From Escherichia coli (GTDB lineage: Bacteria; Pseudomonadota; Gammaproteobacteria; Enterobacterales; Enterobacteriaceae): DNA of 64,000 nt. Under the pieces are notes generated by a model, which saw only the letters and a list, made by a program, of their open reading frames with translations, was not told the origin of the DNA and searched no databases. The first letter of the stretch is position 1. Every line of letters starts with the position of its first letter. Shown in pieces: positions 38,786 to 57,245 of the stretch. A program made the translations under genes and the position numbers. The stretch lies in assembly GCF_003018115.1 (NCBI RefSeq), contig NZ_CP027457.1; one strand, given 5' to 3'.

Positions 38786-38921
38786 CTGATGCCTGATGCG
38801 ACGCTGTCGCGTCTTATCAGGCCTACAATTGAATCACAATCTATTGAATTTGCACACTTTGTAGGCCGGATAAGGCGTTCACGCCGCATCCGGCATTCGG
38901 TGCCAGTGCCACATCCGGCAC
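38786..38921. repeat. REP/BIME repetitive extragenic palindromic elements
   Basis: gcctgatgcgacgctg..gcgtcttatcaggcctac and ggataaggcgttcacgccgcatccgg REP consensus copies. Confidence 0.8.
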
Positions 38922-38928
38922 TTAATAT

Positions 38929-39480
38929 TCACGGCAATTCCGGCGGCAGCCACTCTTCCACTTCAATCAACACCAGCAACGCCGCATCACCACCGTACTC
39001 TTTCGGCGCCTGGTGAAATGCCATCACATGTGGATGTTGCGCCAGCCACAGCGGCGTTTGCTGTTTCAAAATATGCTTACCATGCCCATGCATCACACAG
39101 GCACAAAACACATGTTCACGGCGGCAGGCGGCAATCAATGCGCCCAGTTCCTGCTTGGCCTGCAGCTGCGTCAGACCGTGTAAATCCAAAAACAATTCCG
39201 GCGAATAATCACCGCGTCGCAACTTTTTCGCCTCAAAATGACTCACATCCGGGCGAACATATTTAACCGGACCTTCGGTATTTAATAACGGCTGAAACTC
39301 ATCGGAGAAATAATGGCTGGCATCAGCCTGCTCCTGGATCAAGCGTTTCACCGGCACTTCGCTGACTTTTTTACGCTGTGGTCGGTGGACAATCGTGTCC
39401 TGCTTAATCTTGCGAGTCCCCGCCATCAACTGGCGAAACAGAGCCTGGTCCTCCTCGCTAAGTGTTGTTTTCTTTTTCAT
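38929..39480 (-). CDS. smrB: SMR-domain ribosome-rescue endonuclease SmrB
   Basis: 183-aa [18 protein letters not shown]mr motif. Confidence 0.85.
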
Positions 39481-39646
39481 TTATCTGTCTCTATTTCTAA
39501 TTTTCCTACAGTTTACCCGACTCGTAGCACAATCGATCGTTTTAAACGTATTTTTCCTCACTCACCGCGCGTGAATGCTGATTTATCGTCATCTTCGTGG
39601 CAAACTAGCCGCCGAAATTATTGCGATCATGCCCTGGAGGAATACG

Positions 39647-40578
39647 TGGATAAAATTTTCGTTGATGAAGCAGTTAATGAGCTGCAAACCATTCAGGACA
39701 TGTTGCGCTGGTCGGTTAGCCGCTTCAGCGCGGCAAATATCTGGTACGGTCACGGCACCGATAACCCGTGGGATGAAGCGGTACAACTGGTGTTGCCGTC
39801 GCTCTACCTGCCGCTGGATATTCCGGAAGATATGCGCACTGCGCGTCTGACCTCCAGCGAAAAACACCGTATTGTTGAGCGCGTGATCCGCCGCGTCAAC
39901 GAACGCATTCCGGTGGCTTACCTGACCAATAAAGCCTGGTTCTGCGGCCATGAATTTTACGTCGATGAACGCGTGCTGGTGCCGCGTTCGCCGATTGGTG
40001 AACTGATTAACAATAAATTTGCCGGGCTAATCAGCAAGCAACCGCAGCATATTTTAGATATGTGTACCGGTAGCGGCTGCATCGCCATTGCCTGTGCTTA
40101 TGCCTTCCCGGATGCGGAAGTCGACGCGGTGGATATCTCTCCCGACGCGCTGGCGGTTGCCGAACAGAACATCGAAGAACACGGTCTGATCCACAACGTC
40201 ATCCCGATTCGTTCCGATCTGTTCCGTGATTTGCCGAAAGTGCAGTACGACCTGATCGTCACTAACCCGCCGTATGTCGATGCGGAAGATATGTCCGACC
40301 TGCCAAACGAATACCGTCACGAGCCGGAACTGGGCCTGGCATCTGGCACCGACGGCCTGAAACTGACGCGTCGCATTCTCGGTAACGCGGCAGATTATCT
40401 TGCTGATGATGGCGTACTGATTTGTGAAGTCGGTAACAGCATGGTACATCTTATGGAACAATATCCGGATGTTCCGTTCACCTGGCTGGAGTTTGATAAC
40501 GGCGGCGATGGTGTGTTTATGCTCACCAAAGAGCAGCTGCTGGCGGCCCGTGAACATTTCGCGATTTATAAAGATTAA
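39647..40578 (+). CDS. prmB: Ribosomal protein L3 glutamine N5-methyltransferase PrmB
   Basis: ORF-track frame 39313..40578; start placed at [13 protein letters not shown]; methyltransferase motif NPPY. Confidence 0.9.
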
Positions 40579-40612
40579 GTAAACACGCAAACACAACAAT
40601 AACGGAGCCGTG

Positions 40613-55103: not shown

Positions 55104-55131
55104 GGGCAGGGCCACTGGCTCTGCCCTTTTG
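55104..55131 (+). terminator. Rho-independent terminator after accD
   Basis: gggcag..ctgccc stem followed by TTTT. Confidence 0.55.
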
Positions 55132-55162
55132 CTATTCTCACCGTAACGAATCAGCGGATACC

Positions 55163-56431
55163 ATGATTATCAAACGCACTCCTCAAGCCGCGTCGCCTCT
55201 GGCTTCGTGGCTTTCTTATCTGGAAAACCTGCACAGTAAAACTATCGATCTCGGCCTTGAGCGCGTGAGCCAGGTCGCGGCGCGTCTTGGCGTCCTGAAA
55301 CCAGCGCCATTTGTGTTTACCGTTGCGGGTACGAATGGCAAAGGCACCACCTGCCGTACGCTGGAGTCGATTCTGATGGCGGCAGGGTACAAAGTGGGCG
55401 TCTACAGTTCGCCTCATCTGGTGCGTTATACCGAGCGCGTACGTGTGCAGGGCCAGGAATTGCCGGAATCGGCCCACACCGCCTCTTTTGCGGAGATTGA
55501 ATCGGCACGCGGTGATATTTCCCTGACCTATTTCGAGTACGGTACGCTGTCGGCGTTGTGGCTGTTCAAGCAGGCACAACTTGACGTGGTGATTCTGGAA
55601 GTAGGGCTGGGCGGTCGTCTGGACGCAACCAATATTGTCGATGCCGATGTCGCGGTAGTAACCAGTATTGCGCTGGATCATACCGACTGGCTGGGTCCAG
55701 ATCGCGAAAGTATTGGTCGCGAGAAAGCAGGCATCTTCCGCAGCGAAAAACCGGCAATTGTCGGTGAGCCGGAAATGCCTTCTACCATTGCTGATGTGGC
55801 GCAGGAAAAAGGTGCACTGTTACAACGTCGGGGCGTTGAGTGGAACTATTCCGTCACCGATCATGACTGGGCGTTTAGCGATGCTCACGGCACGCTGGAA
55901 AACCTGCCGTTGCCGCTTGTCCCGCAACCGAATGCCGCAACGGCGCTGGCGGCACTGCGTGCCAGCGGGCTGGAGGTCAGTGAAAATGCCATTCGCGACG
56001 GGATTGCCAGCGCAATTTTGCCGGGACGTTTCCAGATTGTGAGCGAGTCGCCACGCGTTATTTTTGATGTCGCGCATAATCCACATGCGGCGGAATATCT
56101 CACCGGGCGTATGAAAGCGCTACCGAAAAACGGGCGCGTGCTGGCGGTTATCGGTATGCTACATGATAAAGATATTGCCGGAACTCTGGCCTGGTTGAAA
56201 AGCGTGGTTGATGACTGGTATTGTGCGCCACTGGAAGGGCCGCGCGGTGCCACGGCAGAACAACTGCTTGAGCATTTGGGTAACGGCAAATCATTTGATA
56301 GCGTTGCGCAGGCATGGGATGCCGCAATGGCGGACGCTAAAGCGGAAGACACCGTGCTGGTGTGTGGTTCTTTCCACACGGTCGCACATGTCATGGAAGT
56401 GATTGACGCGAGGAGAAGCGGTGGCAAGTAA
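55163..56431 (+). CDS. folC: Dihydrofolate synthase / folylpolyglutamate synthase
   Basis: 422-aa ORF with P-loop GTNGKGT. Confidence 0.93.
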   Translation: MIIKRTPQAASPLASWLSYLENLHSKTIDLGLERVSQVAARLGVLKPAPFVFTVAGTNGKGTTCRTLESILMAAGYKVGVYSSPHLVRYTERVRVQGQELPESAHTASFAEIESARGDISLTYFEYGTLSALWLFKQAQLDVVILEVGLGGRLDATNIVDADVAVVTSIALDHTDWLGPDRESIGREKAGIFRSEKPAIVGEPEMPSTIADVAQEKGALLQRRGVEWNYSVTDHDWAFSDAHGTLENLPLPLVPQPNAATALAALRASGLEVSENAIRDGIASAILPGRFQIVSESPRVIFDVAHNPHAAEYLTGRMKALPKNGRVLAVIGMLHDKDIAGTLAWLKSVVDDWYCAPLEGPRGATAEQLLEHLGNGKSFDSVAQAWDAAMADAKAEDTVLVCGSFHTVAHVMEVIDARRSGGK

Positions 56432-57083
56432 GTTTCAGAATCGGTTAGTGGGCACGATCGTGCTGGTGGCGCTGGGGGTGATTGTACTTCCAGGGCTGCT
56501 GGACGGGCAGAAAAAACATTATCAGGATGAGTTTGCGGCTATCCCGCTGGTTCCAAAAGCGGGCGATCGCGATGAGCCTGATATGATGCCAGCCGCCACC
56601 CAGGCGTTGCCGACGCAGCCGCCGGAAGGCGCAGCGGAAGAGGTGCGGGCAGGTGATGCCGCAGCACCGTCGCTCGATCCGGCCACTATTGCAGCCAATA
56701 ACACCGAGTTTGAACCGGAACCTGCACCGGTCGCCCCACCGAAGCCGAAACCGGTGGAGCCGCCTAAACCGAAGGTTGAAGCACCACCTGCGCCGAAGCC
56801 AGAACCGAAGCCGGTCGTGGAAGAAAAAGCTGCACCGACGGGTAAAGCCTATGTTGTGCAACTGGGGGCGCTGAAAAATGCCGATAAAGTGAATGAGATT
56901 GTCGGTAAGCTGCGCGGTGCCGGTTATCGGGTTTATACGTCGCCATCCACGCCAGTGCAGGGTAAAATTACCCGTATTCTGGTTGGGCCAGATGCCTCGA
57001 AAGATAAGCTGAAGGGATCGCTGGGTGAGTTGAAGCAACTTTCTGGCTTAAGTGGCGTGGTAATGGGCTATACGCCGAATTAA
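56421..57083 (+). CDS. dedD: Cell-division SPOR-domain protein DedD
   Basis: ORF-track frame 56403..57083; GTG start placed at (M)ASKFQNRLVG with RBS aggag; Pro/Lys-rich linker, C-terminal SPOR domain; overlaps folC end. Confidence 0.85.
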   Translation: MASKFQNRLVGTIVLVALGVIVLPGLLDGQKKHYQDEFAAIPLVPKAGDRDEPDMMPAATQALPTQPPEGAAEEVRAGDAAAPSLDPATIAANNTEFEPEPAPVAPPKPKPVEPPKPKVEAPPAPKPEPKPVVEEKAAPTGKAYVVQLGALKNADKVNEIVGKLRGAGYRVYTSPSTPVQGKITRILVGPDASKDKLKGSLGELKQLSGLSGVVMGYTPN

Positions 57084-57089
57084 TACGGT

Positions 57090-57245
57090 CTACGCAGGGG
57101 TAGAACCGTAGGTCGGATAAGGCGTTCACGCCGCATCCGACAGCCGTTGCCTGATGCAACGCTGGTGCGTCTTATCAGGCCTACGCAGGGGTAGAACCGT
57201 AGGTCGGATAAGGCGTTTACGCCGCATCCGACACGCATTGCACGA
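57090..57245. repeat. REP/BIME cluster (two near-identical copies)
   Basis: Duplicated gtagaaccgtaggtcggataaggcgttcacgccgcatccgaca units. Confidence 0.8.

Follow-up and report, generated by a model that had tools for sequence, protein, structure and literature searches.

Repetitive extragenic palindromic (REP) elements are non-coding palindromic repeats that are thought to be spread and reshuffled by a REP-associated tyrosine transposase (RAYT), TnpA_REP. We know of no demonstration that the larger assemblies they form in Escherichia coli, the bacterial interspersed mosaic elements (BIMEs), are mobile as units. Here we describe four clusters of REP elements in a 64-kb stretch of E. coli DNA (contig NZ_CP027457.1 of assembly GCF_003018115.1; this whole stretch is termed the window), which follow a yfcO-family adhesin gene (site 1), yfcL (site 2), fabB (site 3) and dedD (site 4). 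The sequences of the E. coli Y and Z2 units have been tabulated (Nunvar et al. 2010, Table 1; PMC2817692), and the classes of BIME have been defined, with a copy number that varies between strains for BIME-2 and for atypical BIMEs (PMC3333891). The L linkers of BIME-1 often contain a site for integration host factor (IHF), which binds these linkers (PMC3333891), and DNA gyrase prefers the Y units of BIME-2 (PMC6379681). The tetranucleotide GTAG at the head of a REP is needed for binding by TnpA_REP in vitro (PMC3333891).

The four clusters are best read as eight Y and Z2 REP units, arranged as an atypical BIME at site 1, a single Z2-Y pair at site 2, a solitary REP at site 3 and a BIME-2 at site 4, which probably form co-transcribed hairpins in the 3' untranslated regions (3' UTRs) of the upstream genes; to this reading as a whole we assign a probability of about 0.93. 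REP identity is based on a consensus scan set against shuffled sequence, on matches to the Rfam naRNA4 model, on a core shared by all units and on the fit to the Y and Z2 sequences in the literature. The scan covered the full 64 kb, with 20 shuffles of the window as control, and sought GCCKGATGCGRCGY and RCGYCTTATCMGGCCTAC on either side of a 0-14-nt loop with up to 3 and up to 4 mismatches. It found eight distinct units, with 0-3 mismatches in total, and all of them lie at the four named sites (38791-38826, 38861-38894, 44218-44254, 44264-44297, 47727-47762, 57108-57141, 57149-57184 and 57199-57232); a ninth row came from the site-1 Y unit read on its other strand, and the shuffles gave 0 matches. 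Three of the eight units match the consensus with 0 mismatches. The initial annotation had placed REP elements at these four intergenic intervals and had named a scan with a REP consensus as the way to check it; palindromes are present in all four, and their similarity to the E. coli consensus is near-perfect.

Two covariance models led to the same places. Across the whole window, naRNA4 (RF02564) matches at the four REP sites only: the match at 57111-57181 (+) scores 73.5 bits and passes the gathering score of 59.5, and the matches at the other three sites (33-51 bits, E 5e-6 to 0.06) fall below it. The second model, R1, was built from the alignment of the window's eight units, so that its scores on those units (57-63 bits) are circular, these being the training sequences; their reverse strands score 10-21 bits. 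With filters off, the best R1 match in the window outside the eight units reached 7.4 bits (E 3.5). As a positive control on REPs that were not used for training, R1 gave 57 bits for the Y unit and 37 bits for the Z1 unit of K-12 fliC-fliA, and it also picked up all units in other strains. The Z1 type was taken here from the K-12 fliC-fliA BIME-1, and Z2 from the table of Nunvar et al. 2010 (PMC2817692). Matches to the site queries number hundreds of thousands across 5,425 E. coli genomes, with a median of at least 39 places per genome for the site-1 query and 16 for the site-4 query.

When the eight units are aligned their mean column identity is 75%, around an invariant skeleton that, written GTAG-first, reads GTA.G..GATAAG.CG...CG.CGCATC; the Y units fit GTAGG..GGATAAGGCGTTCACGCCGCATCCGGCA and the Z units fit GTAGGCCTGATAAGACGCGCCAGCGTCGCATCAGGCA. 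A GTAG head stands 5' of the stem in seven of the eight, the exception being the site-2 Y unit with GTAA. In the proposed hairpin, an AA/GC mismatch bubble separates a 7-bp outer stem from a 5-bp inner stem that is closed by a loop, and the opposition of AA to GC in the bubble is invariant (alignment columns 16-17 and 33-34). Each of the eight units keeps the full set of 12 stem pairs (96/96 cells paired), and four of the 12 carry compensatory changes between Y and Z units (C-G/U-A, G-C/U-A, A-U/G-C and C-G/U-A); when the 3' partners are slid by 1-3 columns, pairing falls to 18-38%. The intergenic RNAs are predicted to fold far better than shuffled sequences (z from -4.1 to -7.6).

The genomic setting was taken from the RefSeq annotation of E. 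coli F9792. Over the 20 kb around the REP sites, the window matches the chromosomes of F9792, F8111-1SC3 and two O169:H41 strains at 100% identity, and those of most other E. coli at 97%. The order is fimbrial genes, a StfH/YfcO-family adhesin, smrB (opposite strand), prmB, aroC, mepA, yfcA, epmC, yfcL, mnmC (opposite strand), fabB, yfcJ, flk, pdxB, usg, truA, dedA, accD, folC, dedD, cvpA and purF. All eight units lie outside annotated coding sequences (CDSs) and 3' of stop codons, those of sites 1 and 2 between convergent genes and those of sites 3 and 4 between genes that run in the same direction. The four upstream genes are those originally named, and the description of the sites as convergent or 3' intergenic agrees with this arrangement. 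For the corresponding region of K-12, the RefSeq annotation NC_000913.3 lists no repeat features; K-12 has five units at three of these sites, against eight units at four sites in the window. Frequencies among strains are either counts over the whole collection or estimates from about 29 chromosomes sampled at even spacing, and those based on samples are rough. The features of each site are collected in Table 1.

Table 1. Coordinates of the REP units, linkers and associated hairpins at the four sites of the window.
Site	Feature	Position	Strand	Basis
1	Z2-type REP; + strand reads TGCCTGATGCGACGCTGTCGCGTCTTATCAGGCCTAC	38790-38826	-	Consensus, 0 mismatches; R1 62.7 bits
1	L-type linker, 34 nt, between two inverted REPs	38827-38860		Rfam ES036, 29 bits
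1	Y-type REP GTAGGCCGGATAAGGCGTTCACGCCGCATCCGGCA	38861-38895	+	Consensus, 0 mismatches; R1 61.9 bits
1	Small hairpin repeating part of a REP arm (CATCCGGCAC)	38905-38922		Folds on both strands
2	Z2-type REP, loop 1 nt longer than usual	44217-44254	-	Consensus, 0 mismatches; R1 56.7 bits
2	Linker, 9 nt, ACGTCACAC	44255-44263		From sequence
2	Y-type REP, GTAA head	44264-44298	+	Consensus, 1 and 2 mismatches; R1 58.7 bits
3	Two extra tandem copies (10 + 9 bp), GTAG(G)TCGGA	47708-47726	+	Tandem Repeats Finder, period 10, 3.5 copies at 47703-47736
3	Single REP GTAGGTCGGATAAGACGCGCCAGCGTCGCATCCGAC	47727-47762	+	Consensus, 1 and 1 mismatches; R1 58.6 bits
3	fabB intrinsic terminator AAAGGGAACC-CGAT-GGTTCCCTTT, then more T	47797-47820	+	Fold of 47702-47830
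4	Leading copy of 14-nt linker with TAC remnant (TACGCAGGGGTAGAACC)	57091-57107		K-12 alignment; strains ERL04-3476 and LS4
4	First Y-type REP, absent from K-12	57108-57142	+	R1 61.6 bits; consensus scan
4	Z2-type REP	57148-57184	-	R1 56.7 bits; consensus scan
4	Second Y-type REP	57199-57233	+	R1 60.6 bits; consensus scan
4	Intrinsic terminator after the BIME-2, upstream of cvpA	57268-57297	+	12-pair stem then TTTATT (terminator scan); fold

At site 1 the structured region begins about 4-12 nt past the stop codon of the yfcO-family gene (38776-38778), the stem of the Z2 unit starts 12 nt past it, and this unit is the Z2 sequence of Nunvar bar one loop base. The linker aligns with the L linker of the K-12 fliC-fliA BIME-1, and the median number of places at which it recurs is five for an E. 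coli genome, and 10 in K-12 strains. Against Rfam ES036 it stays below the gathering score of 37.6, with the conserved core GCAAAUUCAAUA-AUUG. Within it, ATTCAATAGATTG at 38837-38849 (-) resembles the IHF consensus, differing at one position from WATCAANNNNTTR, although matches of this quality occur in the window at chance frequency (63 found, 66 expected). The predicted fold joins the inverted pair in one long hairpin that spans the linker. From its sequence, site 1 is an atypical, chimeric BIME (Z2-L-Y) and not a BIME-1, because its Z unit is a 37-nt Z2 and not the Z1 of about 29 nt found in the K-12 fliC-fliA BIME-1 (definitions in PMC3333891). The interval first annotated as REP here (38786-38921) does hold two REPs, but its end, 38905-38922, is the small partial-arm hairpin and not a full unit; this hairpin stands 6 nt from the smrB stop codon (38929-38931, -) and inside the sub-threshold naRNA4 match at 38864-38920. 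Of 5,426 genomes, about 360 have the full arrangement. K-12 lacks it, its yfcO-smrB interval being an unrelated 70-bp spacer with a GC hairpin of its own; the O157-like strain 150 has a decayed Y unit, and in strain 3CM the Z2-L part is tandemly duplicated.

Two further observations concern the same spacer. The yfcO-smrB interval (38779-38928) is allelic between strains together with the adhesin gene upstream. In addition, Rfam ES036 (the CssrF small RNA (sRNA); window 38819-38860, -) appears to be modelled on a BIME-1-type L linker plus GTAGGCCU, so that at least two Rfam 'sRNA' families, ES036 and naRNA4, are in effect pieces of REPs and BIMEs and will tag such repeats automatically.

Site 2 is one BIME-2-like pair, Z2(-) Y(+), whose Z2 unit starts 22 nt past the yfcL stop codon (44193-44195). 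It is conserved, as matches spanning 80% or more of the query occur in 4,769 of 5,426 genomes (about 88%), and its length was unchanged in 26 of 29 sampled rows, with an invariant copy number in the sample. The head of the Y unit (44264-44267) is GTAA in this strain and GTAG in the aligned K-12 sequence.

Site 3 holds a single REP between the fabB stop codon (47699-47701) and the intrinsic terminator of that gene, which the consensus terminator scanner missed because the stem absorbs the T run and which was recovered by folding. The REP combines a Z2-like inner stem and loop with an outer stem of the variant GTCGGAT/ATCCGAC, and naRNA4 matches it on the - strand with 50.9 bits. It is preceded by tandem copies of its own GTAG and left arm, making three copies in all, the first of them 6 nt past the stop codon. 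The claim of REP elements over 47706-47790 thus holds for one unit, the remainder of the interval being the two arm copies and flanking sequence that is not REP. Across the aligned interval (window 47708-47736) the number of arm copies is one in K-12, two in O157:H7, three in the window strain, four in GF8 and six in F1053. About 59% of sampled chromosomes have the K-12 length, and 428 of 5,426 genomes have four or more units, apparently at the fabB locus only. When the 9-bp array was sought at other loci it was found in chromosomes only, the median genome having it in one place, and the single position checked (in PK13) was the fabB locus; the array therefore looks like a locus-specific repeat and not a general feature of REPs. 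The REP itself was matched at fabB in every sampled chromosome, and scored 41-59 bits with R1 in five fetched strains and K-12.

Site 4 is a BIME-2, Y(+) Z2(-) Y(+), whose linkers measure 5 and 14 nt; the naRNA4 match that passes threshold comprises its first Y and its Z2 unit on the dedD sense strand. The duplication noted here by the initial annotation is borne out as a direct repeat of 71 nt (57087-57157 and 57178-57248), 90% identical and 91 bp apart. The dedD-cvpA arrays of other strains vary in size: strain 142 has only a degenerate single unit, K-12 has Z2-Y, AR_0013 about two pairs, LS4 three and ERL04-3476 four, against 1.5 pairs in the window. BLAST coverage is unusable for counting these types, as short arrays with repeated units 'cover' the whole query, and they were judged instead from the lengths of matched spans and from the fetched example strains. 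Most of the sample has the K-12 form; the Y-Z2-Y form of the window occurs, at 99% identity or more, in about 56 records. Compared with the multi-pair arrays of other strains, the window retains a leading linker and a TAC remnant, and its array has the appearance of a BIME-2 of two pairs that has lost its first Z2 hairpin and nothing else.

All eight units stand in 3' UTRs and would thus probably be transcribed with the gene upstream, folding in the message as stable GC-rich hairpins. REPs in 3' UTRs have been described as both terminators and stabilisers, and as partial Rho-dependent terminators at most; they are biased to tandem and convergent gene pairs, and a REP that separates convergent genes correlates with higher expression of the two, with effects that depend on context (bioRxiv 10.64898/2026.03.23.713779). 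By analogy with such REPs, the hairpins may slow 3'-to-5' exonucleases, so protecting the upstream message, and may in part keep transcription from running on into the gene that follows or opposes. REPs lying at most 15 nt from a stop codon have been reported to stall terminating ribosomes and lower translation (cited in PMC12306157); the structure at site 1 begins less than 15 nt from the stop codon of the yfcO-family gene, within that range, and could on this analogy stall ribosomes and lower translation. At the DNA level, DNA gyrase (for BIME-2 and Y units) and IHF (for the L linker) are the known binders and would be the candidates here. Transcription, effects on mRNA and protein binding at the four sites are all carried over from the literature, and each is put forward conditionally.

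Some points weigh against the assignment as a whole. The site-2 Y copy is probably no longer recognised by TnpA_REP, and in that sense 'dead', because its head is GTAA and GTAG is required for binding of TnpA_REP in vitro (PMC3333891). The names of the Z units differ between papers, Messing et al. using z1 for the units of REPtrons where Nunvar and Ton-Hoang use Z2. Most strains lack site 1, which speaks against its being essential, and a measurable function is not assured at any single one of the four sites.

Several other explanations of the palindromes were weighed. That they are chance palindromes, or novel structured RNAs peculiar to each locus and unrelated to any repeat family, is refuted by the empty shuffles, by the mutual alignment of the eight units and by the dispersal of their relatives through E. 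coli genomes, and we give it practically no weight. The original suggestion that these inverted repeats are explained as REPs and not as novel RNAs is thereby upheld, with the nuance that Rfam already covers the Y+Z2 pair as naRNA4, and that site 4 passes. Since GC-rich stem-loops stand directly after the stop codons, it could also be supposed that the hairpins serve yfcO, yfcL, fabB and dedD as intrinsic (Rho-independent) terminators, but this was rejected as highly improbable: a T run follows none of the eight units and a terminator scan called none of them, sites 3 and 4 have separate canonical terminators downstream, and mnmC has a terminator-like hairpin of its own, called by the scan at 44330-44305. 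In the literature, moreover, REPs are at most partial terminators, and Rho-dependent ones (bioRxiv 10.64898/2026.03.23.713779). Another proposal is that the clusters, dedD above all, encode discrete sRNAs of the naRNA type, nucleoid-associated RNAs that bind HU and condense DNA. REP325 units have been reported to be transcribed and to bind HU (Qian et al. 2015, PMC4550694), and the score on the dedD sense strand is above the naRNA4 threshold. The model is, however, merely a Y+Z2 REP pair, which any BIME-2 will match; the linker at dedD is 6 nt shorter, the other three sites stay under the gathering score, and a sequence scan of the + strand 5' of the dedD array found no promoter-like site. REP325/naRNA4 has further been reported to be without measurable nucleoid compaction and to act as a local terminator and stabiliser (bioRxiv 10.64898/2026.03.23.713779), and we regard discrete sRNAs at these loci as unlikely.

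A role played mainly in the DNA, with gyrase sites at sites 2 and 4 and an IHF site at site 1 that manage supercoiling, is possible and is entertained tentatively. Such a role would serve converging or highly transcribed genes, and it is compatible with one in the RNA. BIME-2 is enriched in gyrase cleavage sites, which fall mostly in Y units, but the enzyme cleaves only a subset of BIME-2 in vivo (PMC6379681). The IHF site is frequent in the L linkers of BIME-1 (PMC3333891), and the site-1 linker is homologous to these and retains the candidate motif; set against this are the mismatch and chance frequency of that motif, and the absence of site 1 from most strains. REP units that are carried into the message as 3'-UTR hairpins remain our preferred reading, and the identity, structure, position and strain-to-strain variability of the units are direct results of the analysis.

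The rearrangements at fabB and dedD raise the further question of their origin. TnpA_REP cuts in vitro at C↓T, and at CC↓TAC within the GTAG complement (PMC3333891); the gene for the cognate RAYT (tnpA_REP, or yafM) is located outside the window. On the bottom strand the unit boundaries of the fabB array fall at C↓TAC, and the dedD deletion (window 57084-57107), as defined against K-12 and the multi-pair strains, ends at GGTC↓T and GGCC↓TAC. Both could thus be natural footprints of cleavage and strand transfer catalysed by a RAYT, and not products of replication slippage. This is doubtful, however, because slippage at short repeats and hairpins accounts for the array and for the deletion at least as well; at dedD, a 2-nt microhomology (CT) would also permit it. 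Were the transposase responsible, the two loci would offer in vivo evidence for how BIMEs grow and shrink, and the fabB array would be a 3'-UTR structure that strains can tune.

Elsewhere in the window, the argT-hisJ (61153-61372) and hisJ-hisQ (62156-62244) spacers gave no REP with R1 at filters off; hisJ-hisQ is a classic REP site in Salmonella. Upstream of cvpA-purF, ACGCAAACGTTTTC at 57326-57339 resembles the PurR operator of the purF operon. The argW-dsdA stretch (13831-21536) is a strain-variable island: a tRNA-Arg gene, argW (21462-21536, -), is followed by an integrase remnant, by the tnpA and tnpB pair of ISEc46, of the IS200/IS605 type, and by a csc sucrose-utilisation locus (permease, kinase, cscA and a LacI-type repressor) beside a truncated dsdX. 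Two pairs of direct repeats at 24464-24821, spaced by about 210 bp and 77-80% identical, lie inside a hypothetical CDS of 422 aa (23774-25042) between fadL and mlaA, which implies a protein with internal repeats.

For annotation, the consequence is that four GC-rich inverted-repeat clusters can be dropped as candidate new RNAs or regulatory elements, and that pipelines based on Rfam will label site 4 'naRNA4' simply as a Y+Z2 REP pair. For biology, the window is only a worked example of behaviour that has been described before: E. coli strains differ in the REPs and BIMEs that they carry at one and the same locus. The yfcO-smrB element is present in some and missing in others, the fabB REP varies in the 9-bp repeat of its arm, and the dedD array has 0.5-4 pairs. 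Such differences may tune the behaviour of 3' UTRs with the coding sequence untouched. The elements belong to the long-known REP/BIME family, and variability between strains is also an already known property; the tandem repeat of GTAG and arm at fabB and the clean deletion of one hairpin at dedD are only slightly unusual details.

Set beside the described systems, the units of the window correspond most closely to the Y and Z2 REPs of E. coli (Stern 1984; Gilson 1984/1991; Nunvar 2010, PMC2817692). They share the imperfect palindrome of 34-38 nt, the GTAG head and the AA/GC bubble, the inner stems GGCG/CGCC (Y) or GACGC/GCGTC (Z2), and the extragenic, 3' position. They differ from the published REP in that four of them have an outer stem of GTCGGAT/ATCCGAC in place of GCCGGAT/ATCCGGC, a compensatory change, in the GTAA of the site-2 Y unit, and in the joining at site 3 of a Z2 inner stem to the GTCGGAT outer stem. 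Site 4 has the alternating orientation, the short linkers and the strain-variable number of pairs (0.5-4) of a BIME-2 (Bachellier 1994; Ton-Hoang 2012, PMC3333891), although in the window its unit count is odd and its first Z2 is missing; site 2, unlike such arrays, stays a single pair in about 88% of genomes. With REP325/naRNA4 (Rfam RF02564), a Y-linker-Z2 pair derived from REP325, site 4 agrees well enough to pass the gathering score, though its Y-to-Z2 linker is 6 nt shorter.

Site 1 in turn shares two inverted REPs and an L-type linker of about 34 nt with BIME-1, also described as RIP or RIB (Z1-L-Y with an IHF site; Boccard and Prentki 1993; Oppenheim 1993), and, like the K-12 fliC-fliA BIME-1, it has the linker core GCAAATTCAATAxATTG and a Y unit on one side. 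Its other unit is a 37-nt Z2, where fliC-fliA has the short Z1 (GCCTGATGCGCTGCGCTTATCAGGCCTAC), which makes it an 'atypical BIME' by the scheme of Bachellier; and whilst BIME-1 is normally not duplicated, the site-1 element has been tandemly duplicated in strain 3CM. The predicted fold of site 1 also recalls the REPINs of Pseudomonas, RAYT-linked pairs of inverted REPs for which a single long hairpin across the linker is predicted (Bertels and Rainey 2011, PMC3116915), and which belong to another sequence family and another host.

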